Origin: Escherichia phage ECML-606-1
Strand: one strand, 5' to 3'
Sequence record: OL631484.1
DNA length: 64,000 nt
Under the pieces are notes generated by a model, which had not been told where the DNA came from, did no database searches, and saw only the letters and a list, made by a program, of their open reading frames with translations. How positions within the stretch are numbered: position 1 is the stretch's first letter; each line of letters starts with the position of its first letter. Below are positions 10,961-30,095 of this stretch, piece by piece. The position numbers and the translations under genes were made by a program.

Positions 10961-13810
10961 TTATGCTTTGAGTCGGTCTACTTCATCCGCCAGCGTTTTG
11001 ACGGATTCGATCAGGTCTGCGATGAGCGCGTTTTGAGACACGTTCAGCACCCCGTTAACCTCATAGGTATAGATCGGGTCAATCTTCTGGAGCTCCTGCG
11101 CGATGTAGCCACGGTCATGGCGTCCGTCATGCTTCCAGTCGAATTCCCGCGCAACAATCTCACGGATGCGAGACAGTGCGCCCGGCTTGGCATCCTCCGC
11201 ATTATCTTTCAGCGCGATATCGGAGGCATTAAACTGAACTGTGCCCAAAGGCCCGGTAATATCACCGTTAGCTTGGAAAGCCCAGTCTTTATTTACCCCT
11301 CCTGAGTTTTGCTGGAGGGTGATTTGGTAAGCGAGAAGATCCGTACTGGCTCCTCGGACAGCGCCAGTCTGAACAAAGCCATTACACCATTGGTAGCTTG
11401 TCCATCCCGTCCAACCATTCGGGATGCTGCTCTTTCTGTTATTGAGCTCGACTCTGTTTTGCTCACCTGCTCGCACCCCACAACCACCACCCGCAGCGGT
11501 ATGCAGATCATTACAGGTGACGAGCGCGGAGATATCCAGCGCGTTTCCTGTCCATGGCTTGATGTTATTCGCCAGCAAATAACGTGGCACCGTCAAGTCA
11601 CCATTGGTATCAAAGATGAAGTTTTGGAAGGCCCCGGAAACCTCATTTTTTGCCTGAATGACAGCCATGCCCACGATAGATGATTCAGTGGTGGCATATC
11701 TTCCGCTGGCTACCAGCGAGGCCGAAAGTTTATCCGCGCCACCGATGGTATAGCGGGAATAGACCATCCCGCCCAGCACGCTCGTATTAGCACCCGGCGC
11801 GGTAGCATCACCAGAGATCACGCTGAAATTGGTGTTCGCTGACTGGAAGGCACCAGAGGCTCGGATGATCCAGATGCCCACAACCGAGTTCGGGCGCACC
11901 TCAGTACCACGTCCATACGCGGGGTTAGATCGGCTAGCATTAAATTTAAACCCGTTATAGGTTCCCGCTACAACTGGACCGGGTTGAATATTGTTAGGGA
12001 ATGAGTCCCCTTGATAAACGGCGCTTTGAGGGTCGTTAACCGCCGCGAATGCACCAGCACCTGAGTTGCCGATAAGACCCGTAATATTCGGCGCGGCGTT
12101 GTATTTAATCGCGCCTACGCCGCCGATCTCGCTAGTAAAATGACCACCACCATCACCACGCAGGAAGTTAGCCCCCGGAGTAAATCCATCAGCGTATGCG
12201 CCATTAAGATCAGGCACACGGAATTTCCCTGTACTTGATTGCTTAACATATGCGCCTCGGTTTTCACCTTTCCGCAGACCGTCAGCGCTACCGCTGTTTT
12301 GCCAAAGGGCTTCCGTTACCGTGACAACCCTGCCAGAATTCACCAAAGCATACAGATCTGCGGTTGCAGGATCTGTTTGGCTGCATTCCTGACCGTCGGC
12401 GGGGATATATCCAACGGGTAAGCTGGCACGCGATCCGTTCCACCATTCCACCGCGCCAACAAAGTTATTAAGCACGCCATTCATCGTTGGGCCAGAGCCG
12501 CCTGAGTTTGCTTTCAGCTGGCGCAGCGTAACTGCGTCATAATCTCCTGCTGCGTCGGCATTCAGCGTAAGCGGGCCTTGCAGACCTGTCAGCTGGGTGA
12601 TGTCACTATTAACACCAGACTGTGCCCCTTTTCTCCAGTCGGTGAATACGCTGCCATCATAGCTGCGCGAAGCAATACGCCCACTTTTAGCGATGTAAAC
12701 CTGAGTGACGCCACCAGATGCGCCGAACGGGAATACAGTCAGCTGACCGGGCTCATCAAACGGGAAGTTGTTGGCTGCAACAGCACCAGCAGCACTGGTC
12801 AGAGATACCACGCCATAATGCGCCGGGAGAATGCGGTCATTCAGGTTGATAACCGTTGAAATGCCATCCATCTGGGCGACGGCTTTCACTTCGGATGCCG
12901 CAGGCGGGTTATCGCTGGTATACATCCGGCGTGGTGCGCTCCAGTTGGTCGTCGTGCGCGTGATGCGATAAACCCACGTTGGCGTCGCGCCCTCAGACGC
13001 GAAGATGAAGACAGTCGATGTGCGATCCTCGTTGATGCCCTCACAGTGGATGCGCCACGCTGTAGCACCAGCGCCAGTGATGGTCGCCGGGAAGCCATTG
13101 GCAGTAATCGCATCGGCGGCCTTCACGCGCATAGTTTCACCTACGCGCCAAACGTGCGAGGTGATCGTGTCTCCGGTGGCAGCGAAGTCGAAGTAAGGCA
13201 GTTTGATGCCCATAAGTCCAGCATAACCCGCTGTGAGCACCGCCCCGTCGCGGGTGATGGTTGGACTGGCGATCTCCTGATCGGTCAGGGAGCGGGCGAT
13301 ATTCAGCGCTACGCCTCCGGTCGGCTGAGCACCGCTGCTGTGTGTCCAGTCGATTGTTGCACCGTTACCCGCGATCAGTAGGCCAGTCCATTTGCGCGGT
13401 GCAGTGCTCGGTGCGATGTTAAACCAGATCTCATAGGTGTCGGCTGCGACCTCCACCAGCTTACCGCCAAGGATGGTCGCTGAATTCGCGCCAAGATTGG
13501 TCTGAGCAGTAACGGTGATGCGTGCCGGATCACCGACAGTGGTCACAGAGCCGTCGCCTGTCTGCATGACAATGTTGGCGAAGCCAGTACCAGTCACCAC
13601 CATCAGCGTAATGGCAATTTTGCCCTGCGCGAGATTGGAGATCTTGCCCATCTTCTGCCAGCTATCTGACGTGATATCCCAGTCAGTGAGCATCACGGCA
13701 TTTTTATCCAGCATGGTCAGAGCATCGGTCAGCTTGCCCACATCAATTTTTAACGGGTTGGTCAGGTATGGGACAGGAAGCCCAAGCCGGGGAGTAGTTT
13801 TGTCCACCAT
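10961..13810 (-). CDS. tail fibre / tailspike protein with C-terminal intramolecular chaperone (peptidase S74-like) domain
   Basis: 949 aa; Gly/Thr/Ser/Asn-rich beta-type sequence; C-terminus NASDIALKDN...IAQELQKIDP matches the autoproteolytic chaperone signature of tail fibres. Confidence 0.65.
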   Translation of the reverse strand: MVDKTTPRLGLPVPYLTNPLKIDVGKLTDALTMLDKNAVMLTDWDITSDSWQKMGKISNLAQGKIAITLMVVTGTGFANIVMQTGDGSVTTVGDPARITVTAQTNLGANSATILGGKLVEVAADTYEIWFNIAPSTAPRKWTGLLIAGNGATIDWTHSSGAQPTGGVALNIARSLTDQEIASPTITRDGAVLTAGYAGLMGIKLPYFDFAATGDTITSHVWRVGETMRVKAADAITANGFPATITGAGATAWRIHCEGINEDRTSTVFIFASEGATPTWVYRITRTTTNWSAPRRMYTSDNPPAASEVKAVAQMDGISTVINLNDRILPAHYGVVSLTSAAGAVAANNFPFDEPGQLTVFPFGASGGVTQVYIAKSGRIASRSYDGSVFTDWRKGAQSGVNSDITQLTGLQGPLTLNADAAGDYDAVTLRQLKANSGGSGPTMNGVLNNFVGAVEWWNGSRASLPVGYIPADGQECSQTDPATADLYALVNSGRVVTVTEALWQNSGSADGLRKGENRGAYVKQSSTGKFRVPDLNGAYADGFTPGANFLRGDGGGHFTSEIGGVGAIKYNAAPNITGLIGNSGAGAFAAVNDPQSAVYQGDSFPNNIQPGPVVAGTYNGFKFNASRSNPAYGRGTEVRPNSVVGIWIIRASGAFQSANTNFSVISGDATAPGANTSVLGGMVYSRYTIGGADKLSASLVASGRYATTESSIVGMAVIQAKNEVSGAFQNFIFDTNGDLTVPRYLLANNIKPWTGNALDISALVTCNDLHTAAGGGCGVRAGEQNRVELNNRKSSIPNGWTGWTSYQWCNGFVQTGAVRGASTDLLAYQITLQQNSGGVNKDWAFQANGDITGPLGTVQFNASDIALKDNAEDAKPGALSRIREIVAREFDWKHDGRHDRGYIAQELQKIDPIYTYEVNGVLNVSQNALIADLIESVKTLADEVDRLKA

Positions 13811-13860
13811 TTCCGGGATCTCTCTTGTTCAGGAATAGCGGATATTCTGGAATCACTACG

Positions 13861-13890
13861 GGGAAATAAAAAGCCCGGACAGTACCGGGC
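13861..13890 (-). terminator. rho-independent terminator
   Basis: GCCCGG-ACAGTA-CCGGGC hairpin followed on minus strand by TTTTTATTT. Confidence 0.5.
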
Positions 13891-13898
13891 TGGAAGGT

Positions 13899-14153
13899 TT
13901 ACCACTTGAATTGTCGCTGATCGTCCTCGCAAAACTCGAACAGCTTATGCACGCCCCAGTAAACAGCCCCGGCGGCGACGACCACCATCACAAGGCCCAT
14001 CAGCATGGATCCGAATCCCAGAGCCGCGAGGCCAGAAGTGATGCCTGCTGCACTCAATCCTGAAACCTTCCCCAGAAGGCTGATCAGCAGGATAGGCGTT
14101 CCTGCCGCTGCTGCACCTGCTGTGACTTGTTTTGCCACTGTGTACCCGTTCAT
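13899..14153 (-). CDS. small membrane protein (two predicted TM helices; holin-like topology)
   Basis: 84 aa, two hydrophobic segments, charged C-terminus. Confidence 0.4.
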   Translation of the reverse strand: MNGYTVAKQVTAGAAAAGTPILLISLLGKVSGLSAAGITSGLAALGFGSMLMGLVMVVVAAGAVYWGVHKLFEFCEDDQRQFKW

Positions 14154-14581
14154 TACCGCCCCTTTTTATGTGTCGCTGAGCGGTGCTGTCCGCTGTAGCG
14201 ATGGTTTCCGTATGCCTGCTCGTCACGCCAGTTAATCTGCTGCTGACGCTTACCGGAATAAGCGGAGTAAGGCGGTTTTGGCTGGAGTTTAGCCATTACA
14301 TGCCAAACGTCATAGCAGGCATCATGGAAACGGCGATCCGTTGTCGAGTCCTTGAAATTGCTGTACATCATTTCCGCGACGTACTGCGCCAGCATGGATT
14401 GCAGCTCCTCGCGGTTGACGAACACTCGGAACTGGTAATCGCGGTGATCGTGCGTGACCACTTCTTTGGTCGGGAAGTATTTGTTCAGATGCTCTTTACG
14501 GCGAGCACGTACTTGGATCACTTCCGGGTCTTGTTTGTCTACGACAGCAGACAGGAAGCCATCAGATAAAATCAGCCACAT
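14153..14581 (-). CDS. hypothetical protein
   Basis: 142 aa; ATG at 14581 with GAGGA SD; promoter immediately upstream. Confidence 0.45.
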   Translation of the reverse strand: MWLILSDGFLSAVVDKQDPEVIQVRARRKEHLNKYFPTKEVVTHDHRDYQFRVFVNREELQSMLAQYVAEMMYSNFKDSTTDRRFHDACYDVWHVMAKLQPKPPYSAYSGKRQQQINWRDEQAYGNHRYSGQHRSATHKKGR

Positions 14582-14617
14582 GGCGTATTCCTCAGGTTGG
14601 ATTGGTTAACGGCTGAG

Positions 14618-14646
14618 ATAATACGTCATGCGTGCCGTATGGTCAA
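14618..14646 (-). promoter_or_regulatory. sigma70-like promoter TTGACC-N17-TATTAT with palindromic operator in spacer
   Basis: minus-strand hexamers; spacer contains ACGGCACGCATGACGT. Confidence 0.45.
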
Positions 14647-15507
14647 TCTTTTTTCTTACCTAAATACGCGTCAAGCACCATTTGGTCGGGCTTCATGTTC
14701 ATTAGCTCGCGCAGCTTGTTTTTTGGTACCAGCTGGACGGCCTGCGTTTCCCAGCCCATCGCTACCGGGGAACCACCGACGCGCTTCGCCAGATACATGC
14801 GAGAAACAGACGTGGTGCGCTCAAAGTCACCCAGCACGCCAGTGATCTCGATCTGTAGCCCGGACTCCTCCCATGTCTCTTTGATGGCGTTCTGCTGGAG
14901 CGTGAGCCCCGGCTCAGTGCCACCCTTCGGGAAAGTGTTCTGGTAGCCGCCGAAAGCGTTGGTCGGGCTGATAATCCACACGCGACCGTCAGGCTCCTCA
15001 ATGATGACGCCGGACGCTGGACGCTTCCCGGCTGGTACCATTAACGGCTGCTCGGTCATCTGTTTGGTGCCCTTCACAAAGGCCCAGCCCGCGTCGGTTT
15101 TCGGTGCGCCAGTCCACGGCGCGACCGGGACGCCATTCAGCTCCTGCGGTGCTGCACCATTAGGCGTGAAGGTGGCCACCTCGTTGCTCGCGGCCCACGT
15201 TGGCGCTTCGGTCGGTTTGCTCGGATGGTTAACCACGACGCGGTTGCCCTTCTCACCCAGTCGCGGATGGTGGACAATCTTCGTCGGTAGTCCTTTGCTG
15301 GCGGTAGTCCTGTGCGTGCCATACGGCGTCGTGGGCAGCGCTGGCTTGCGGTAATAGGCTTTCTTGGCCTGAGGCTTCGCAGGCGCTTTGGGGGCCGCAG
15401 GCGCATCAGGTTTGGCTGCTGCCTTCCCGTTGTCGTGCGGCTTCACCCATACGCCATCGCTCCGGCGATAGCCCTTCACCTGCGCTTTCAGGAAAAGTTT
15501 AGTCATT
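14643..15507 (-). CDS. Nudix hydrolase (putative)
   Basis: Nudix box GGTEPGLTLQQNAIKETWEESGL (REx2EExGU with R to K); Pro/Ala/Lys-rich N-terminal region; ATG at 15507. Confidence 0.55.
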
Positions 15508-15981
15508 GCCTTCCACTCCCAGCATCCATTGCGCCATGGATTCGACGCTGGACTGCACGCGGGCGGCGATTTCTGCATCCTTCCCGCCCTTGTCAAATGC
15601 CTGGTAAATACTGATCGCAAAGCGGGCCATCGCGTGCGCGACGATCAGCGCGGGATCCGTTTCATCCTTCGCCAGCCCCTTCACGTTCTGGATCCAGCGC
15701 GGCAGCGCGAAGTCATTCCAGCCCGGCAGCACGCTAAAGCCTGCGGTGTTACCCACAAAGATGTTAGCGGTGTTCAGCGCCTGCGCACGGTCGGCCTCCA
15801 GCGCTTCTTTCTCAGTCATCTGGTTGGCCTGCACCTTAGCGATGCGTCCCACGATGTCCTTGGCGAAGTTATTCAGGATGGTGCGTGCCACGTTGATATC
15901 GCCCAGATAAACGCTGCCATCAGCAGCGTTCAGACCTTCGATAAACCACGTTGGATCAGTATGTCGGTTCAATTCAGCCAC
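15499..15981 (-). CDS. hypothetical protein
   Basis: 160 aa; GTG at 15981 with AAGGGGGC SD; overlaps Nudix start by 9 nt. Confidence 0.4.
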   Translation of the reverse strand: MAELNRHTDPTWFIEGLNAADGSVYLGDINVARTILNNFAKDIVGRIAKVQANQMTEKEALEADRAQALNTANIFVGNTAGFSVLPGWNDFALPRWIQNVKGLAKDETDPALIVAHAMARFAISIYQAFDKGGKDAEIAARVQSSVESMAQWMLGVEGND

Positions 15982-15990
15982 AGAGCCCCC

Positions 15991-18900
15991 TTATACGCTC
16001 GGCAGGATGATACATTCCACAACGGTCATGCCGCTGCCGCCAAAGCCATCGGCGTCCTTAGTCCCCGATTCGTTCACCTTAGTGATGAGTAGGCGGGTAT
16101 TAGGTGGCAGGATAATTTCTTTTTCCCCGGTATGGTGCGAGATAGATCCACCACTCGGAAGCGAGCCAGCGCCCGCATAGATACCTTTTACGCCGGGGCC
16201 TGCTGTCATTTTGAGGTGAATATTACCACTCCACACGTCTGGACTGATAGACGTGGACATAATTGCAGGCTCCATGATGACCTTGCCGACCGACGCTTTC
16301 AGCTTGGAGAGATCACCGCTGCCCAGACTGAATTTGCGCCCGAACGTGGTACCCGGCGAAATTTCATGGCCCATACCAGACAGCGCCTGCGCTGCTGCTT
16401 TCGCTTCTGCGCTTGGGTTGCCCTTCCACAGTCCGCTGTTCATCTGCTTATAACTGCTACCAGTATACGCCTGCACGGCCTGCTTTTGTGTCATCGGCAG
16501 CTTTTCCCACACTTCCTGTGCTGCTTTGGCATAAGTGTTTGTGGTCAGCGTGCCAGCCTTGAAAGTGGTTTTAGTAATGCCAAGGTCTTCCGGCTCAACA
16601 ATCCCCGGATGGCCCAGCACCAGCAGGTTCCCGATCTTGTCTGCATCGTTACCGCTCCAGTTTTCCGGCTTGTATTCTTCGTGCATCGAATACAGCGGGT
16701 GATCGCCGCCGATACGGAACTGCTCGGCTTCATGCCCGGTAAGCTGGCTCTTAATCTCGTTAATCGCCTGCATCGCGTAGCCTTTGATGTGCTGCGATGG
16801 GTGATCGAGCACTGGCACCTGTCCGGTAACAGCTCCGGTGTCTTTGTCAAAGGTTGGCGCGGTCAGGCCGCGAATGGCTTCCGGGTCTCCGGTCAGCGCC
16901 GCAGAATAAATGGCCTGCGCCGCGTCGTGGTTCCCTTTGTTCAGGAACTCTTTGGAGGACGGGCCGGATTTGCCAACGCCAGACCAGTTGAGGAAGTCAG
17001 GCGGGGTACTGATTTTCTCCGGCTTGAATTTCTGCATTTTGATGATCTGCTCGGCTTCCGGGTACTTCTCAGCCAGATACTCTTTGCGCTTGATGAGCGT
17101 TTCCACCAGCTCTTTTTTGGCCTTCTCATCGCCCGGCCCATACTGGTTGACCATGTGCGCGATTTTGGCGTCGGAGATAGCCAGCACCTTGGAGACAGAC
17201 GCGGCGATATCGGCCTCAGTCATGCCACCGAAGACGGCGGCGCTGTTCGCGTTCATCTTCGGATCCATCAGTGACTCCAGCTCCTTAACTACCGGGCCAA
17301 ATTCTTTCTTCGCACCCTGCGCACGGAACATCAGCGAGCCGCCCGCATCGACGCGGTGAATGGTGCCGTCATCTTTCAGCTGCACGTTGTCTTTCGCCAG
17401 CCCCACGACATCCCAGTTACCCAGCCACGCATCAACGGCAAAGCCTTCCAGCATACCCTTGGCCTTCGCCAGCGCTGCATGGGTTTTGGCCTTCTTGATG
17501 TTCTCCCACTTCGAGGCAATAGCCATTTTCCCGTCCTTGGTGACGATCATGGCGTCCTGCGCGGACAGGCCAGCGGCGCTATACAGTTTCGCTGCCAGCA
17601 CCTCAGCCTTGGCGTGCTCCTCGTTATCCGGGAACTTCACATACCATTCCTGCCCATCGGCGTCCTTCATTTTCATGCCTTCATTCGAACCGCCTTGGTT
17701 GCCCCCGGTCACTGTCCACTCATCGACGCTGATCGGCTCTTTCTTCTTCCACTGGTACTTTTTGACCTCCATCGGGCCATCAGCGGCAAGGCCATTCTCT
17801 GCCGGGTTGCTGGTCGCGGCGGTAGCATTCATCAGCTGCGCGACGCCATTCATAGCATAGGTGCCATTCACCTCAGGGTTATAACCGGACTTAACCTTGA
17901 TCCCATTAGCCATCAGCATCATCGACGCATATTGCGCCAGCGCCTTTTTACCCGGCGCGGTCGGGCCATACTCCGTTGAGACCTTAATTTTCATCCCAAA
18001 CTCGCCATAAATCAGCATCGAACCATCGGCTTTCTGCATGATGACGCCTTTGGTGCCGCCGCCTTTGGTCAGCTTGGCTTTGAGGTTATCTACATATTTC
18101 ATGTAGTGATCCTGCTGCCAAGCGCTCAGGCCAAGCGCAGCGAAGTCAGGTGCTGGGATCTCGTCAGGATTGGCCCTAACCCAGCGCCCGTTTTTCAGGA
18201 TCAGCATCCCATTGGCACCCGGCTTCATGTCGCCTTCTTTCGGGCCATCGCCTTCTTTCTGGCCCTCGTCGGCTTTCTTAGCATCTTCTTCGGCTACGGT
18301 GTTTTTGATAGCCGTCAGGATCCCTTCGATAGCCACAGGAGTAAAGTCGTTGATGATAAGCACGCTCTTAATGGTGCTGACCGCATCCACTTTGTCCGGG
18401 TTGGCGTCGTAGTATTCCTTGCACGCCACCGACGCCTTGACGACCTTTTGCAGCCCGGTTTTGGTCTCCGCGATGCTCTTGATGTCGTCCAGCAGTTTCA
18501 GGTCGATATTACCCAGCTCCGGCGCGGCAGGTTCAGGCGCAGGCGCAGGCTCCTCAGCTCCGGTGATCTGATCCTGTACAAAGGTCATGGTGCTGATCGC
18601 GTAATCCGTCATGCTCATCTTGACCACATCGGTGCCCTGATTCGCCATCAGCGCATACGCGGACTCTTTGACGCTGTTCAGCACGGCCTCTTTCATTTCC
18701 GGCGAGTCGGTGTACTTCGCCAGCATCGCCATCGCTGCCAGACCATCCAGCGCATCTGCATCCGCCATGCTATCGCCCTTGTAACTGGCTTTCGGGATCC
18801 CCTGCGGGACGCCGTGCATGTTGATGCTGTCTTTCAGTATGGACTGGAGGACAGGGATATGGGCCACGTTATCGCCTGCGGCCTTCACGATGTCCTGATA

Positions 18901-21900
18901 GGTGGCAGGGTTGTCGCCTTTCTTCGCCACGTAATCCTGTACAGCCATCAGCGTTTCGAGGTTGTCTTTGGCGTTGTTGAAGACCAGCCCAAGGTCATAC
19001 ATGTTTTTCGGCTTGCCCGGCGCAGCGGTCAGCTTGTCCAGCACCTCAGCCATGTACTCCTTGTACTTGGTACCGTTGATCGTGGTGCTCGGCGTCACGT
19101 TCTGCTCATATTTCATAGCCTCAATGAGCAGCTTTTTGCTGTTCTCATCCTTCGCCAGTGTTGCAGCGATGGCGTAGCCCTGAAAATCAGTTGCCTCGGT
19201 CGAGTAGAAACCAACGTCCGGCTTAATCGGCAGGTTGAGCGGCTTGCCATGCTTTTTGAAGTAAGCCTGACCGATTTCAGACGCAGCGTAGACGTGCCCG
19301 CTGTTCATTTTCAGGATATTGTCGATAACAGTCGTGTACGCGCCCTTATCGCCATGGTTATCCTTGATGAATTCCAGACCGATGCTGGTCGCATCATCGC
19401 CGTTCGCGCCAGCGAGGGCCTGTTTGAGCGCCACAATCTCGCTGCCCGCGCTGCCATTGGCTGAGGTCTCAGGCATATCCTGCTGTAAGATCCAGTGCCC
19501 ATTATGGAAGACCAGAATACCGCCTTTACCCTGCTTGGTATCACCTTCTTTCGGGCCATCCTCTACCAGCCACTTATTGACCTCCTGCTGGTACAGTTTA
19601 ACCTGCACAGCAGCTGGCTCTGAAAGGTGAAGCTCGCTCAGCTCATTAAAGTGCTTGGCGATCACATCAGGATCTGATTCTTTGCCTTTGTGAACTTCTT
19701 CGGCAATGACGTTATAGAGGGTCTGCACTTTCGTGCCATAGGTTTTCACCGTGTCGCTGGTTGGTGATACCAGCGGTTTTTCTGGCTCAGTCCCGTAAGT
19801 CTCACTCCACCACTTACCATAGGCTTTCTTGCCAGCGATAAAGAACTCATTCGCCAGCTCGTTAAACCCATTGTCCTTCATGGCCTCAGCCAGCACCACC
19901 AGCTGCGGCGCATCATGCCCATTCGCCGTCATCCAGTCGCCAGCAATCGCGTCGGCCTGTTTTTCGTCCTTGGCATCTGTCAGCGCATCAAAGGCGCTTT
20001 CCCACATGGCGTAATCATTCAGGATCGCTTTCTTCTCCTGCTTACGCTCATGTTTGGTGGCAATCTGCTCGGATTTCGCCGCAGCCTGAGACTTCTCGGC
20101 CCATGAATCGTACAGCTTCCCGACGCTGGACTCGGAGAAGGCCAGATCGCTACCGTAATAGGTAGACGCCTGCTCAATGAATGCCTCGCCTTTTGTCTTC
20201 GCCCACTCGTTGAACTCAGCCACATCGGCAAAATCCGGCAGCTGCGGCTCAGGGGTTGGCGCACGCTCCTGCTTGATCTGCGGTGGCGTCGGCAGGGATT
20301 TCACGGAGATATCGCCCAGCTCTTTCTTGGCGGCGGTCACGGCTTCGATGATCCACGCGGACAGATCAACCTTCTGGAAGGCATCAATCAGGTTCTGGTC
20401 ATCACGGATCACTGTCACCATGTCGTTGATGTTGTCCACAGCCAGCGCCCAGTTACCCGCGTTGAGGTCATTCTGGATGTCCTCACAGATGCCGTCGATA
20501 AACGCATCACCAGTCTGCGGAGGATTGGAGAAAGTCTTCACTCCCTCAGGCTTAGGCGCAGCAGCAAGGCCCAGAGACTCCGCCAGATTGACCGCAGGCT
20601 CTTTGCCAGCCATTACCTGCTGGTAAACCTCATTCTGCGTGTTGGAGAAGCCGGAGATATGGCCCCAGTCGCCCTTCTCGTTAACCCACATACCAGATCC
20701 CGGATTCTTCGGATCCGCGACGATGACTGCGCTGGTATTGGTCGGGTAAACGCCTGCGTCTGGAGTCGTGGACAGCACGCCATTCCACATGTTCTTGATG
20801 ACGTTTTGCTGCTTCTGGGTCAGGTGATTCGGCTTGCCCAGCTCCACCAGCTCGGTCGGGTACTCGCTATGGTGATAGTCGGAAATGTAGCCCAGATTGT
20901 CCGGGGTTTTGGTGTTGCCACCAAAGCCGATCAGTTTCAGGTACTGTCCCGCTTGGAACGGCTTAGCCAGCGGCTCACCCTTCTTGCTTATAGGCCATGC
21001 GGTCGCGTGCCCCATCAGCACTTTCAGGTACGGCTTACCGTCCTTGTCGTAGGTCTGGATGATTGAGCCTGCGGGCAGGTTCGGCATATCGGAGATCGAC
21101 AGCTTCTGGCCCTTTTTGAACTCACCAGCGACAGGCTGATCCTTGAGCGGCTCGCCAGTCTCCTGATTGTGCCAGCGACCGTCTTTGAAAACCTGCATCC
21201 CGTTTTTGCCCATGCGGGTATCACCTTCCTGCGGGCCTTCCTCAGCCCGGACGGTTTTCTGCTGCTCAACCTCTGCGCTGGCCTTCTGATCCTTTTCTGC
21301 CTGGCTAAACTGGCCCAGCATTGGATGCACGGCGTCTTTGCCGATAACCACTTTGATATCCGGGTAGCCCAGCGCTGCCAGCGCGTTATTCGCAGCCTTG
21401 GCGACTTTGAGCCCGTAGGTGTTTTTTCCGTATGTCATCGCCAGAATGCCGTTGATGTTGCCTACTTCGCCAGCGGCCTTGATAGCGGCGATCTGCGCGT
21501 TGTAGCTCTTGGCATTCTTAATGTTCTCCGCGACGGCGAACTGGCTCCAGTCGATAGCGTCCATGGCCTTCTTCGACACGGATGCTTTCGGGGCTGGCTT
21601 GCCTTCGGCGGTGTCCGGCTGCGCCGGGGAGGTAGCGATGATTTCAACCGCGCTCAATGGGCTCGGCTCCTCGGACTGCACCAGCGGCTTATTCGGATTC
21701 TCACCCGTCAGCAGCGCCAGCTTTTGCCCGTAGAGGTTCAGCAGCTTTTTGCTGTTCGGGGTGATGCCCTTCCAGCTTTTCGCCTTGCTCTTGATAGCTT
21801 CCAGCTCCGCCAGACTGGTGGCGTCGATGACCTTCTGAGCCTGCGCCTCATACGCGGTGCGCACGCCAGTGGAGTTTTTGCCGGATTCAAATTTAGGCAT

Positions 21901-22764
21901 GACGATTTCGCCTGGCTTCGGTGCTTCGGCAGCAGGTGTTGAGGCTTTCTGGACTTCTTCTTTAGCTGCGTTTTTTTTCTCAGGTGAAGGAGACGGCCCA
22001 TCTTTTGGCATAATAAGGCTTAGTTTTTTTGCTCCACCCGGTTCAGTTTTAAAGTATCCAAACTGCGTACCGTAATTCTCAATCGCGTGCAGCTGGTGCT
22101 GTTTTAAATCACCAATCTCAATAGTGATGACGTTATTTTTTACTTTGTATGCTTCAATCGGTGGCAGACCTAGGTAACTCTCAATTCCAGAAACAATGGC
22201 TTGTTGTTTGGCTGTCAAATTACCTGTAGCTGGTTTTGTTGCTGCCTTTGCCTCTTGCGCTACGGCTTCAATGGCCTGCTCAGCCATCTGATCGACGGTC
22301 TCAGGCTCTCTCTCGTATGTGGCGATGGCAGGGTGCTCACCCGCTTTCTGGCCCGCGCTGACCTTCTCCTGCGAGCCCATTTGCTCCAGCAGATAGTTGG
22401 CAATCGCCACCAGCTTTTTACCGTGGGTGTTCACGCCATAGGATGATCCCAGAATCGCCGCGATATCGCCGTTGGCAGCGTGCTGCAACAGGTTCGGGAC
22501 GTGTTTCTGGTTGAAATGCTTAATGTCTTTGTTGGTCGCCTCTTTCTCAGCAGGATAGAGCAGCTGGCTCGACTCCTCCTTAGGCATGGCGTAAGGCTTA
22601 TGGCCTTTGCCACCAGCTTTAGGGTGCGCGGCTTTCGGGGCGTTCTTGACGCCCTTCATGTCCGGCGTGGTTTTCTTCCAGCGCCCATTGATCAGAGCAT
22701 AGCCCGCTTGGTGGGCGAATTTTTGATTAAGTGCTTTTGCGAGGACAAGCATGGTGGCCACCAT
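15991..22764 (-). CDS. giant virion-associated protein with C-terminal ADP-ribosyltransferase-like domain
   Basis: 2257 aa; C-terminus has TFGRKF, IMSTSIS (STS) and GEKEIILPP (ExE); recurring internal motifs EGDTKxGxxGxxVFxNGRW and ILGSSYGVNTHG / ILAMTYGKNTYG. Confidence 0.65.
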   Translation of the reverse strand: MVATMLVLAKALNQKFAHQAGYALINGRWKKTTPDMKGVKNAPKAAHPKAGGKGHKPYAMPKEESSQLLYPAEKEATNKDIKHFNQKHVPNLLQHAANGDIAAILGSSYGVNTHGKKLVAIANYLLEQMGSQEKVSAGQKAGEHPAIATYEREPETVDQMAEQAIEAVAQEAKAATKPATGNLTAKQQAIVSGIESYLGLPPIEAYKVKNNVITIEIGDLKQHQLHAIENYGTQFGYFKTEPGGAKKLSLIMPKDGPSPSPEKKNAAKEEVQKASTPAAEAPKPGEIVMPKFESGKNSTGVRTAYEAQAQKVIDATSLAELEAIKSKAKSWKGITPNSKKLLNLYGQKLALLTGENPNKPLVQSEEPSPLSAVEIIATSPAQPDTAEGKPAPKASVSKKAMDAIDWSQFAVAENIKNAKSYNAQIAAIKAAGEVGNINGILAMTYGKNTYGLKVAKAANNALAALGYPDIKVVIGKDAVHPMLGQFSQAEKDQKASAEVEQQKTVRAEEGPQEGDTRMGKNGMQVFKDGRWHNQETGEPLKDQPVAGEFKKGQKLSISDMPNLPAGSIIQTYDKDGKPYLKVLMGHATAWPISKKGEPLAKPFQAGQYLKLIGFGGNTKTPDNLGYISDYHHSEYPTELVELGKPNHLTQKQQNVIKNMWNGVLSTTPDAGVYPTNTSAVIVADPKNPGSGMWVNEKGDWGHISGFSNTQNEVYQQVMAGKEPAVNLAESLGLAAAPKPEGVKTFSNPPQTGDAFIDGICEDIQNDLNAGNWALAVDNINDMVTVIRDDQNLIDAFQKVDLSAWIIEAVTAAKKELGDISVKSLPTPPQIKQERAPTPEPQLPDFADVAEFNEWAKTKGEAFIEQASTYYGSDLAFSESSVGKLYDSWAEKSQAAAKSEQIATKHERKQEKKAILNDYAMWESAFDALTDAKDEKQADAIAGDWMTANGHDAPQLVVLAEAMKDNGFNELANEFFIAGKKAYGKWWSETYGTEPEKPLVSPTSDTVKTYGTKVQTLYNVIAEEVHKGKESDPDVIAKHFNELSELHLSEPAAVQVKLYQQEVNKWLVEDGPKEGDTKQGKGGILVFHNGHWILQQDMPETSANGSAGSEIVALKQALAGANGDDATSIGLEFIKDNHGDKGAYTTVIDNILKMNSGHVYAASEIGQAYFKKHGKPLNLPIKPDVGFYSTEATDFQGYAIAATLAKDENSKKLLIEAMKYEQNVTPSTTINGTKYKEYMAEVLDKLTAAPGKPKNMYDLGLVFNNAKDNLETLMAVQDYVAKKGDNPATYQDIVKAAGDNVAHIPVLQSILKDSINMHGVPQGIPKASYKGDSMADADALDGLAAMAMLAKYTDSPEMKEAVLNSVKESAYALMANQGTDVVKMSMTDYAISTMTFVQDQITGAEEPAPAPEPAAPELGNIDLKLLDDIKSIAETKTGLQKVVKASVACKEYYDANPDKVDAVSTIKSVLIINDFTPVAIEGILTAIKNTVAEEDAKKADEGQKEGDGPKEGDMKPGANGMLILKNGRWVRANPDEIPAPDFAALGLSAWQQDHYMKYVDNLKAKLTKGGGTKGVIMQKADGSMLIYGEFGMKIKVSTEYGPTAPGKKALAQYASMMLMANGIKVKSGYNPEVNGTYAMNGVAQLMNATAATSNPAENGLAADGPMEVKKYQWKKKEPISVDEWTVTGGNQGGSNEGMKMKDADGQEWYVKFPDNEEHAKAEVLAAKLYSAAGLSAQDAMIVTKDGKMAIASKWENIKKAKTHAALAKAKGMLEGFAVDAWLGNWDVVGLAKDNVQLKDDGTIHRVDAGGSLMFRAQGAKKEFGPVVKELESLMDPKMNANSAAVFGGMTEADIAASVSKVLAISDAKIAHMVNQYGPGDEKAKKELVETLIKRKEYLAEKYPEAEQIIKMQKFKPEKISTPPDFLNWSGVGKSGPSSKEFLNKGNHDAAQAIYSAALTGDPEAIRGLTAPTFDKDTGAVTGQVPVLDHPSQHIKGYAMQAINEIKSQLTGHEAEQFRIGGDHPLYSMHEEYKPENWSGNDADKIGNLLVLGHPGIVEPEDLGITKTTFKAGTLTTNTYAKAAQEVWEKLPMTQKQAVQAYTGSSYKQMNSGLWKGNPSAEAKAAAQALSGMGHEISPGTTFGRKFSLGSGDLSKLKASVGKVIMEPAIMSTSISPDVWSGNIHLKMTAGPGVKGIYAGAGSLPSGGSISHHTGEKEIILPPNTRLLITKVNESGTKDADGFGGSGMTVVECIILPSV

Positions 22765-28558: not shown

Positions 28559-28587
28559 AATTATTTACGGCATACGTGACGCATCAA
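28559..28587 (-). promoter_or_regulatory. sigma70-like promoter TTGATG-N17-ATAATT with CGTCACGTATGCCG element in spacer
   Basis: minus-strand hexamers; overlaps stop codon of methyltransferase gene. Confidence 0.35.
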
Positions 28588-30095
28588 AAGGCATCGTCAT
28601 CTTCATCAGGATCCGGCAGGTGCCGATCCTCGGTCTCCTCCGGGAATTCCTCTCCGGTGTAGAAGTGGACGGCCTTACGCCCGGTCAGGTTCTGCCAGCG
28701 ACGAATCGCCACATCAGCAAAGCCCAGATCGAGCTCCATCACGCGTGCGCATACGCCCATTCGCTCGGCGGCCACCAGTGAAGTACCAGAGCCGGAGAAG
28801 GGATCCACCATGATGTCATTCAGGCGCACGGTGTTCTTCATCATGCGCTCCCACAGCTCCACGGGCTTCTGCGTCGGGTGCAGGTCGCTGCGGTCAGGAC
28901 GCGGCACGCTGACCACGCTGCCCAGCATTGACTCCACCTTGGCGTCGCCTTCCACCCGCATGATGAGATCGCCGTACTGGAAATACCAGTTACCCTCGGC
29001 ATCCTGTTTGAATGGGCTTGAGTCGCCAAACTCCGCGACGGTCGTTTGCTTCCTGCCACCGTGCCAGCGGTGCTTGGCACCCTTGCGCCAGCCGTACAGG
29101 ATTGGTTCATGGATGCTTTGGAAGTCAGCCATGCCCAGTGTCATGCTGTTCTTCTTCCAGATGACATTCTGGGAGAAGTGGAAACCGACCTTTTCAAACG
29201 CCCAGCGCAGGCCATGGGCCATCTTGTCGGAGTGGCTGATATAGGTCACGCCGCCCGGCTGCATCGCGTCATAGGCGCAGCTCAGGACATTGACGAGGAA
29301 CTGATTAAAGTCCTCCTCGTTTTTCCAGTCGTTAGCGATCCCGCCAGTGCGCGAGCGCTCGCCTCCGATGGCCTTATCCATGCGCTTATTCTTCTTGCCC
29401 ACATCGACGTTATACGGGGGATCGGTCAGCATCATGTTGGCCTTCTCGCCCTGCATCAGCGCCAGCCAGCTTTCCGGCTGCTCAGCATCGCCAACATACA
29501 GGCGATGAGCGCCCAGCACCCACAAGTCGCCCGGACGGCTCTTTGGCTCGTCAGGAAGCGGTGGCGCATCATCGGGATCGCTGTCACCTCCTCCTCCCTC
29601 CATCGGCGGCAGCTTCATGATCTCGTCCAGCTGCTCAGGGTCGAAGCCGATAACATCCAGATCGTAGTCCAGATCAGCCAGGGCATTCATTTCGATGCGC
29701 AGCATGTCCATGTTCCACTCGGACGCCCGGCCCAGCTGGTTATCCGCGATGATGTACGCGCGGCGCTTAGCCTCATCCCAGCCAGTGCAGTCCAGCGTCG
29801 GCACCATGCCAATAGGGATCGGTGTGCCATCCGGGAAAGCAATTTGCTTGCCCTCGCTGTACAGCTTCATCGCTGCCAGCTGGCGTCCATGGCCTGCCAC
29901 AATCCCTTGCTCATCGACGAGGATGGCGTTAGTCCACCCGAATTCAAGCATTGACGCGGCGACCTTCTGGACGTGCGCCGGGCTATGGTCGTTTGAGTTG
30001 TTCACGTAGGGGATGAGGCTATCAACCGGGCGCAGCCGGATCATCGGGGGGATCACGTCCAGCCCCAACATCTTGTTAAAATCTTTATCAGCCAC
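28584..30095 (-). CDS. DNA methyltransferase with N-terminal ParB-like nuclease domain
   Basis: ParB/Srx-like VAGHGRQLAA; methyltransferase motif IV LTDPPYNV before motif I VDPFSGSGTS (beta-class N6A/N4C order). Confidence 0.7.
   Translation of the reverse strand: MADKDFNKMLGLDVIPPMIRLRPVDSLIPYVNNSNDHSPAHVQKVAASMLEFGWTNAILVDEQGIVAGHGRQLAAMKLYSEGKQIAFPDGTPIPIGMVPTLDCTGWDEAKRRAYIIADNQLGRASEWNMDMLRIEMNALADLDYDLDVIGFDPEQLDEIMKLPPMEGGGGDSDPDDAPPLPDEPKSRPGDLWVLGAHRLYVGDAEQPESWLALMQGEKANMMLTDPPYNVDVGKKNKRMDKAIGGERSRTGGIANDWKNEEDFNQFLVNVLSCAYDAMQPGGVTYISHSDKMAHGLRWAFEKVGFHFSQNVIWKKNSMTLGMADFQSIHEPILYGWRKGAKHRWHGGRKQTTVAEFGDSSPFKQDAEGNWYFQYGDLIMRVEGDAKVESMLGSVVSVPRPDRSDLHPTQKPVELWERMMKNTVRLNDIMVDPFSGSGTSLVAAERMGVCARVMELDLGFADVAIRRWQNLTGRKAVHFYTGEEFPEETEDRHLPDPDEDDDAF

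Follow-up and report, generated by a model that had tools for sequence, protein, structure and literature searches.

The Nudix protein encoded in a stretch of 64,000 nucleotides of Escherichia phage ECML-606-1 (sequence record OL631484.1; the whole stretch is hereafter called the window) is best explained as one separable module within a polyvalent, virion-packaged set of effectors centred on an ADP-ribosyltransferase (ART), a reading to which we assign a probability of about 0.6. The set would consist of a giant protein carrying a kinase-like domain and a C-terminal ART of the Alt/C3 type, its near-constant partner of 160 amino acids (p160), and the Nudix protein. According to this model, the proteins would be made late from genes near those for tail fibre, terminase, portal and capsid, would be built into the virion and delivered to the host together with the DNA, and the ART and the Nudix pyrophosphohydrolase would act jointly in the first minutes of infection. 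The genes and domains concerned, all on the minus strand, are as follows.

15991-22764, minus strand: open reading frame (ORF) of 2257 amino acids for the giant, a polyvalent-type protein and the anchor of the module.
17071-17730, minus strand: kinase-like domain of the giant, amino acids 1679-1898, with the motifs GGSNEG, DAWLGNWD and VDAGGSL.
15994-16893, minus strand: C-terminal ART region of the giant, amino acids 1958-2257, from a six-phage alignment and a 15-sequence profile.
15499-15981, minus strand: ORF for p160, 160 amino acids, with a GTG start.
14643-15506, minus strand: Nudix gene, 287 amino acids, with an ATG start at 15506.
15435-15494, minus strand: leader hairpin motif of the Nudix protein, FLKAQVKGYRRSDGVWVKPH, amino acids 5-24, near-universal in the family.
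15282-15434, minus strand: Pro/Ala/Lys-rich linker, amino acids 25-75, by composition, with a predicted local distance difference test score (pLDDT) of 62-75.
15027-15281, minus strand: middle domain, amino acids 76-160, pLDDT >90, clade-specific.
14667-15026, minus strand: Nudix catalytic domain, amino acids 161-280 (Pfam NUDIX, E=2.6e-12 over amino acids 161-271).
14856-14924, minus strand: Nudix box GGTEPGLTLQQNAIKETWEESGL, amino acids 195-217, by sequence.

The earlier note had proposed a coupling of the ART and the Nudix enzyme from the adjacency of their genes, to be checked by co-conservation across related phages. Hidden Markov models (HMMs) for the ART domain, p160, the Nudix protein and p142 (the 142-amino-acid product of the next gene) were built from six phages and scanned against the six-frame ORFs of 87 loci containing a Nudix relative, of which 77 were assessable and 10 were cut by contig ends. 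The ART was detected in an adjacent gene or within the same ORF in 76 of the 77 assessable loci, the sole one without it being MT835507. The arrangement of the window, ART giant, p160, Nudix and p142, was found in 56 loci, with the order ART, p160, p142 and Nudix in a few. In 16 loci Nudix and ART are joined in one ORF of 1240-1700 amino acids followed by p160, while in 2 loci the Nudix gene precedes the ART giant, the ART thus lying downstream. The loci L081 and L082 are also fused, the ART being detected there by Pfam only. When the search was started from the ART domain, a Nudix gene was present in 24 of 26 assessable loci, and a tblastn search of cultured phages with the ART region returned Nudix-bearing phages only. 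Across the locus set the identity of the ART goes down to about 25%.

The domains of the module are also joined in other combinations in relatives. A fusion of p160 to the Nudix N-terminus was found in P0018, P0024, P0027, P0030 and P0040, and locus L088 shows the order giant, a 406-amino-acid p160-Nudix fusion and a p142 homologue. The kinase-like domain, which lies within the giant in the window, is attached to the Nudix protein in other phages. L078 (9293-14329) encodes Acb1, an inhibitor of the cyclic-oligonucleotide-based antiphage signalling system (anti-CBASS), in the arrangement Acb1-Nudix-ART; L081 (7767-12296) encodes Nudix-(kinase-like)-WGR-ART, and P0393 combines Nudix with ART-PolyVal, a second, unrelated ART family. 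The effector domains ART, Acb1, WGR, kinase-like and ART-PolyVal thus share large proteins with Nudix domains in relatives, as is characteristic of polyvalent proteins. Because co-occurrence is near-universal in both directions and Nudix and ART are fused in 16 loci, the pairing goes beyond adjacency, and the idea that Nudix homologues in relatives never co-occur with the ART clearly fails. The proposed pair is borne out in this respect and by the recurrence with a second ART family in P0393; at the level of sequence, a functional pair of ART and Nudix is strongly supported.

The assignment of the ART is in agreement with several lines of comparison. The giant matched Pfam ADPrib_exo_Tox (E=4.8e-9) and the PHROG family of Alt-like ARTs (E=3.8e-7), and the R, S-T-S and E-x-E motifs that define the R-S-E class are represented by R2143, S2170-T-S and E2214-x-E2216, all conserved in the six phages. 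These columns are invariant or nearly so in the six phages and the 15-sequence profile, by which the C-terminus of the giant is classed as an R-S-E ART of the Alt/C3 type. Its kinase-like domain is 44-46% identical to the C-terminal extensions of Nudix proteins in L014, L021, L034, L039, L041 and P0106; such extensions in other phages give weak Pfam HipA_C matches. Four copies of the pattern G..G.....NG(R/H)W are spaced along the giant at intervals of about 450-550 amino acids (21172-21201, 19492-19524, 18181-18210 and the N-terminus near 22680-22750), and (P)KEGD(T/M) precedes each of the three internal copies. These repeats may mark module boundaries or processing sites of the giant. A smaller ART giant of 1598 amino acids was observed in locus L112 (5672-10465), followed by p160, with no Nudix gene within 10 kb and a p142-like gene upstream.

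The Nudix protein itself is a composite. The AlphaFold2 (AF2) model has a mean pLDDT of 88, and its catalytic domain confidently adopts the alpha/beta/alpha Nudix fold. The leader motif is modelled as a helix with short beta hairpins (pLDDT about 75-83). The Pro/Ala/Lys-rich N-terminus described earlier is confirmed for amino acids 25-75, which include 9 Pro, 12 Ala and 8 Lys per 51 residues; in homologues this linker is variable in length and sometimes missing. For the middle domain, the fold search aligned only the Nudix domain and gave no fold match for amino acids 76-160. An alignment of 37 family sequences shows residues H80, G87, P95, W131 and W141 of this domain to be invariant, and the domain was found in 263 representative clusters. 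Since all nine unusual architectures checked have a Nudix domain downstream of the middle domain (immediately so in eight), and since one protein of 1905 amino acids (P0251) contains five middle-domain matches together with five Nudix stretches, the middle and Nudix domains are, judged from these architectures, one unit.

The earlier note, which took the proteins as a module for NAD/ADP-ribose chemistry, missed what we consider the main point of the context, that they are probably virion cargo. In the GenBank record of Yersinia phage fHe-Yen8-01, the homologues of the giant, p160 and the Nudix protein (67% identical) are labelled as particle-associated, the giant homologue as 'ADP-ribosyltransferase toxin, phage particle associated protein', and the p142 homologue bears no such mark. 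The module of the window lies just upstream of the genes for tail fibre, terminase, portal and major head protein, that is, in a packaging neighbourhood. In a phage-plasmid of Pseudomonas juntendi, a fused Nudix-ART gene and p160 are located between portal/MuF and protease/capsid genes, and the N-terminus of the L112 ART giant shows a weak match to a lambda-family portal (Phage_portal_2, E=2e-6, below the Pfam cut-off). A literature search on fHe-Yen8-01, Dolphis, Touem01, phiT5282EW and the virion proteomics of ART/Nudix phages yielded no experimental data on the module. Based on the annotation and the gene order, the Nudix protein, p160 and the ART giant are probably packaged in the virion and injected.

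A candidate for the packaging determinant is the leader. The leader-motif HMM matched the Nudix protein of the window (E=4e-15) and no other ORF of the window, while among 15,668 ORFs of related loci it matched 14 other neighbouring proteins near their N-termini (E 8e-11 to 3e-5). A match in Pseudomonas phage Jeremy is the product of the gene just upstream of the ART giant, and several ART giants are matched as well, for example at ...IPGYTKHDGTTVEGH. Some giants, including that of the window, start with the looser LLKA..FAHQAGYxLxNGRWH. The fused lineage carries a different motif, RWPAGSxKGGQF, in the place of the leader, and in L061 a separate Nudix protein and a separate ART protein both bear this second motif. 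These distributions suggest that the leader is a tag shared by proteins that are incorporated into the particle or anchored in it. Otherwise unrelated proteins near the module, in L003 (7373-7756), L021 (12043-12636), L060 (11096-12847), L049 (11135-12043) and ten more, begin with the leader pattern LxKAHVxxYTRKDGxxVxAHDDKRxAAA that the Nudix protein has; a Pfam scan of ten other leader-bearing proteins gave DUF6900 only, in one of them.

The Nudix box noted earlier is present with its metal ligands, yet it departs from the consensus GX5EX7REUXEEXGU at two positions: position 7 is Leu instead of Glu, and position 15 is Lys instead of Arg. Lys at 15 is found in nearly all of the family members listed and Leu at 7 in most. 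Positions G1, E16, E19, E20 and G22 are present and invariant. Since the Glu metal ligands E210, E213 and E214 are invariant in the 37-sequence alignment, in which the mean column identity is about 49%, and since both canonical residues, E7 and R15, are kept in the box of Aeromonas phage ST4, the Nudix protein is expected to be an active enzyme. That it is instead a catalytically dead fold, employed as a ligand sensor or a structural part of an ejected complex, might be read from the R15K and E7L departures, but is hardly credible when 37 sequences show no variation at the three Glu ligands and at many surrounding residues and the ST4 box is canonical at both positions.

For the substrate, the closest solved relatives by both sequence and fold are Ap4A/Ap6A hydrolases, a MutT1-type diadenosine polyphosphatase and RppH. 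The best matches were Aquifex Ap4A hydrolase (E=5.8e-11), DR1025, the Ap6A hydrolase Ndx1, RppH and oomycete decapping effectors, with identities to the diadenosine polyphosphate (ApnA) hydrolases and RppH of 20-27%. NCBIfam gave weak RppH and MutT1 matches only, PHROG matches to phage Nudix families were weak (E about 1e-5 to 1e-6), and ADP-ribose pyrophosphatases (ADPRases) and NudC ranked below ApnA hydrolases and RppH among the similarity matches. The ADPRase signature is a Pro about 16 residues past the box, and NudC is recognized by the motif SQPWPFPxS and a zinc-binding N-terminal domain. Neither the closest similarity nor the downstream signature of the ADPRase (NudF) type applies to the protein, the motif and the zinc-binding domain of NudC are both missing from it, and the signature motifs of NudC and CoA-ases were sought in its sequence and are absent. 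At 20-27% identity the substrate is not fixed, and a classical ADP-ribose pyrophosphatase is unsupported by this similarity. We commit to an adenine-nucleotide pyrophosphate compound as the predicted substrate: the odds are about even for a molecule or adduct derived from ADP-ribose/NAD and linked to the ART reaction, and about one in three for Ap(n)A or an RNA 5' end. A role in NAD/ADP-ribose chemistry is argued because of the persistent pairing with two ART families and with WGR and PARP-like domains.

The similarity to RppH and ApnA hydrolases leads to an alternative in which the Nudix protein is an independent host-takeover enzyme, stripping 5' pyrophosphate or Np(n)N caps off host RNA or degrading dinucleoside-polyphosphate alarmones, so that it would have only the delivery route in common with the ART and no chemical tie to ADP-ribosylation. 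We regard this as possible but doubtful: Nudix specificity is poorly predicted at 20-27% identity, and no other domain is paired with the Nudix protein nearly as tightly as the ART, the pairing being seen again with a second ART family. The strict version of the earlier proposal, in which the Nudix protein is an ADP-ribose/NAD pyrophosphatase that erases the marks set by the ART or scavenges its by-products, is held with comparable reserve. It draws on the ART-Nudix coupling and the fusions, on the co-fusion with NAD/ADP-ribose-themed partners (WGR, a weak PARP-like match and ART-PolyVal) and on the hydrolysis of ADP-ribose by T4 NudE; in passages of PMC9503650, phage Nudix proteins are likewise inferred to target ADP-ribose derivatives. 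The similarity searches, as far as sequence goes, do not favour an eraser or scavenger mechanism. A housekeeping, nucleotide-sanitizing MutT-like enzyme, unpackaged and next to the ART by chance, would agree with the MutT1/8-oxo-(d)GTP phosphatases among the structural neighbours, but it is very improbable in view of the fusions to ART, p160 and the kinase-like domain, the position in the head/late module, the particle-associated label and the dedicated leader common to other neighbouring proteins.

Several observations weigh against the reading of the Nudix protein as a module of a packaged effector set. L112 and L115 carry an ART giant and p160 with no Nudix gene, indicating that Nudix is not obligatory, and many of the loci are related or near-identical, so that they should not be counted as independent events. 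Among solved structures, the closest relatives belong neither to the ADP-ribose nor to the NAD enzymes, and the box carries Lys and Leu in place of the canonical Arg and Glu. As to the tag, the N-terminus of the window giant was rejected as a leader match, since its likeness is at the level of pattern and not significant by HMM (it is significant in other lineages); in addition, the leader is internal in the p160-Nudix fusions and duplicated in P0025, indicating that it is no simple N-terminal signal. The particle-associated label is a database annotation, behind which a literature search found no paper, and the large terminase of fHe-Yen8-01 bears the same label, suggesting a sensitive or impure preparation. 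For the proteins of ECML-606-1, both packaging and catalytic activity are predictions from comparison with relatives.

The close linkage of p160 to the ART gene was observed in both types of loci, p160 directly following the ART-bearing ORF in 54 of the 56 split and 13 of the 16 fused cases. The protein shows weak conservation, with a single Gly invariant, and gave no match against Pfam, PHROG and NCBIfam; its profile matched, among PDB sequences, designed helical repeat proteins only, which was taken as compositional. From its position, p160 most likely serves the ART protein as an adaptor or chaperone. In the window, p160 starts 9 nucleotides past the stop of the giant, and the 3' end of its gene overlaps the 5' end of the Nudix gene by 8 nucleotides, ATGACTAA. 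A longer ORF of 325 amino acids with a TTG start was rejected as the Nudix gene, the true start being the ATG at 15506.

Downstream of the Nudix gene, the order on the minus strand continues from the ART giant, p160 and Nudix to p142, an ORF of 84 amino acids and a terminator, with the following features.

14618-14646, minus strand: sigma-70-like promoter TTGACC-17-TATTAT, by sequence pattern.
14584-14625, minus strand: RNA hairpin over the Shine-Dalgarno sequence of p142 (RNAfold -10.9 kcal/mol, z=-2.3).
14153-14581, minus strand: ORF for p142, 142 amino acids.
13899-14153, minus strand: ORF of 84 amino acids, Gly/Ala-rich and hydrophobic, overlapping the p142 stop by 1 base.
13872-13891, minus strand: strong intrinsic terminator closing the unit after the 84-amino-acid gene, a 7-bp stem with 6 GC pairs followed by TTTTATTT.

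The three ORFs reported earlier, for p160, Nudix and p142, are all present on this strand in one direction, directly after the giant. The two flanking proteins, previously grouped as unknowns, both exist but are not equivalent, p160 belonging to the ART module and p142 apparently heading a separate unit. The spacer between Nudix and p142 is 61 nucleotides long. Its promoter-like site is the single match to TTGAC-N16-20-TATWAT in the 64-kb window (0.06 expected by chance), and fHe-Yen8-01 has TAGACA-18-TATAAT at the same place. An equivalent hairpin of unrelated sequence was found in most of 55 distinct related spacers (mean z=-2.4). Because the spacer contains the sole promoter-like site and a hairpin covering the ribosome-binding site, p142 probably starts its own, differently regulated transcription unit and would not belong to the cargo. 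In L002, L004, L027, L060 and L063 the hairpin is followed by a U-tract and resembles a terminator. In Pseudomonas-type loci (L006, L012, L016, L017, L025, L027, L030, L036 and L047) a palindrome, TCAAAT(A/T)TGA, was observed between the -35-like and -10-like elements 5' of p142 homologues, and could be an operator for a phage regulator. Rfam applied to 13700-16100 gave only an MS2-operator match (E=0.5), dismissed as chance.

Conservation is good in p142, where residues M1, W2, R25, R27, D48, Y49, R52, N75, F76, K77, W93, Q100 and Y105 are invariant. Its AF2 model has a confident core with no significant fold match, and its profile against PDB sequences gave nothing useful, the match being to trigger factor at E=0.3. 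Neither p142 nor the 84-amino-acid protein matched Pfam, PHROGs or NCBIfam, and scans of 42 p160 and 31 p142 homologues produced scattered single-member noise only. A role of p142 as a Nudix-specific partner, considered since all 56 split loci have it and no fused locus does, was downgraded, as this pattern follows lineage and L112 has p142 without Nudix; it is also weakened by the lack of a particle-associated mark on the homologue and by the promoter-like site of its own. The 84-amino-acid protein is likely to reside in the membrane. At its position fHe-Yen8-01 has a different ORF of 112 amino acids, with no likeness evident when judged by eye only.

The module is carried by a myovirus with a genome of about 95 kb. 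Enterobacter phage phiT5282EW (95.5 kb) matches the window at 98.2% identity; its gene calls are identical, and all genes of the region are annotated there as 'hypothetical'. The related Morganella phage Mecenats66 is also a myovirus, and the paper on it (PMC9503643) leaves the module genes undiscussed. Further downstream on the same strand are the genes for a tail fibre (S74-type C-terminus), an 871-amino-acid large terminase, the portal and the major head protein. For the Nudix family, 791 relatives were retrieved from the database, many of them on contigs of 85-102 kb; searches of cultured phages and of IMG/VR gave 8 and 228. The p142 family numbers 690; given these hundreds of relatives, both are real genes. 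Elsewhere in the window (28584-30095, minus strand) a ParB-like N-terminal domain is fused to a DNA methyltransferase (PHROG 498, E=1e-129), annotated likewise in Mecenats66. Relatives were also observed on circular plasmid records and on contigs of about 100 kb from bacterial assemblies, including L123 (P. juntendi plasmid p2463-1) and Salmonella enterica contigs of about 100 kb bearing P0006, P0010, P0019 and P0054. Partition or toxin-antitoxin genes occur in some related phages (ParA in Touem01, a toxin-antitoxin pair in Jeremy, YafQ/ParE in L088). These records suggest that part of the group lives as phage-plasmids.

Injected phage proteins act before the expression of phage genes and thereby determine on what terms the phage meets host immunity. 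The environmental family to which the module belongs is large, comprising hundreds of clusters from phages of about 85-100 kb and from phage-plasmids of Proteobacteria. The combination of an ART and a distinctive Nudix protein, held together by synteny and repeated fusion, makes it a testable case for cooperation at the start of infection, the candidates being the degradation of NAD-derived immune signals, the editing of ADP-ribose marks and the attack on host RNA 5' ends. As a candidate tag for loading proteins into the capsid, the leader could also serve in the delivery of engineered cargo.

Among known systems, the ApnA hydrolases and RppH (Aquifex aq_158, 3i7u; T. thermophilus Ndx1, 1vc8; M. 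tuberculosis Rv2985, 9cxx; E. coli RppH) share the minimal Nudix fold of about 125 amino acids with the phage protein, which in contrast adds an N-terminal motif, a linker and the 85-amino-acid middle domain, and has Lys for Arg in the box. T4 Alt and NudE present a similar combination, an R-S-E ART that enters along with the DNA and a Nudix enzyme of the phage that acts on ADP-X, both in a myovirus. Alt is a protein of about 680 amino acids that follows a cleaved capsid-targeting route, the Alt and NudE (e.1) genes are unlinked, and NudE is not known to be packaged; in the loci described here, however, ART and Nudix are adjacent or fused. The SidE effectors of Legionella carry a mono-ADP-ribosyltransferase and a phosphodiesterase in one protein that is delivered into the target cell. 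The likeness, no more than a lead, lies in the physical coupling of an ART to an enzyme able to cleave the ADP-ribose pyrophosphate; in contrast, the SidE phosphodiesterase is not Nudix, and the present pair is known from genes, coupled by synteny and fusion. By analogy, the ART might ADP-ribosylate a host protein or nucleic acid and the Nudix enzyme then cut the pyrophosphate, with p160 joining the two enzymes and the leader serving as a general capsid-loading tag. We consider this sequence of events a long shot; if true, AMP would be released and a phosphoribosyl mark would be left beyond the reach of host macrodomain or ARH erasers.

The closest likeness is to the polyvalent proteins described by Iyer et al. 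2017 (PMC5512222), the features in common, as those systems appear in passages of that work, being a giant with a C-terminal ART beside packaging/head genes and the shuffling of domains between neighbouring genes. In passages of Iyer et al. 2022 (PMC9503650) it is proposed that ARTs, as well as Nudix, Macro and NADAR proteins, are packaged into myovirus heads and injected. The phage Nudix proteins treated in passages of these papers are mostly T4 NudE-like or NadM-like, and usually standalone or fused to MuF/portal, in contrast to the present one, which is nearest to ApnA hydrolases and RppH. The passages of PMC5512222 and PMC9503650 concerned describe no ART-p160-Nudix triad, Nudix-ART fusions, repeated fusion and fission, middle domain or hairpin motif. 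The idea of head-packaged ART and Nudix proteins is thus already published, and the module in ECML-606-1 is a concrete case of that idea; what is gained is not a new principle but a concrete and well-delimited system.

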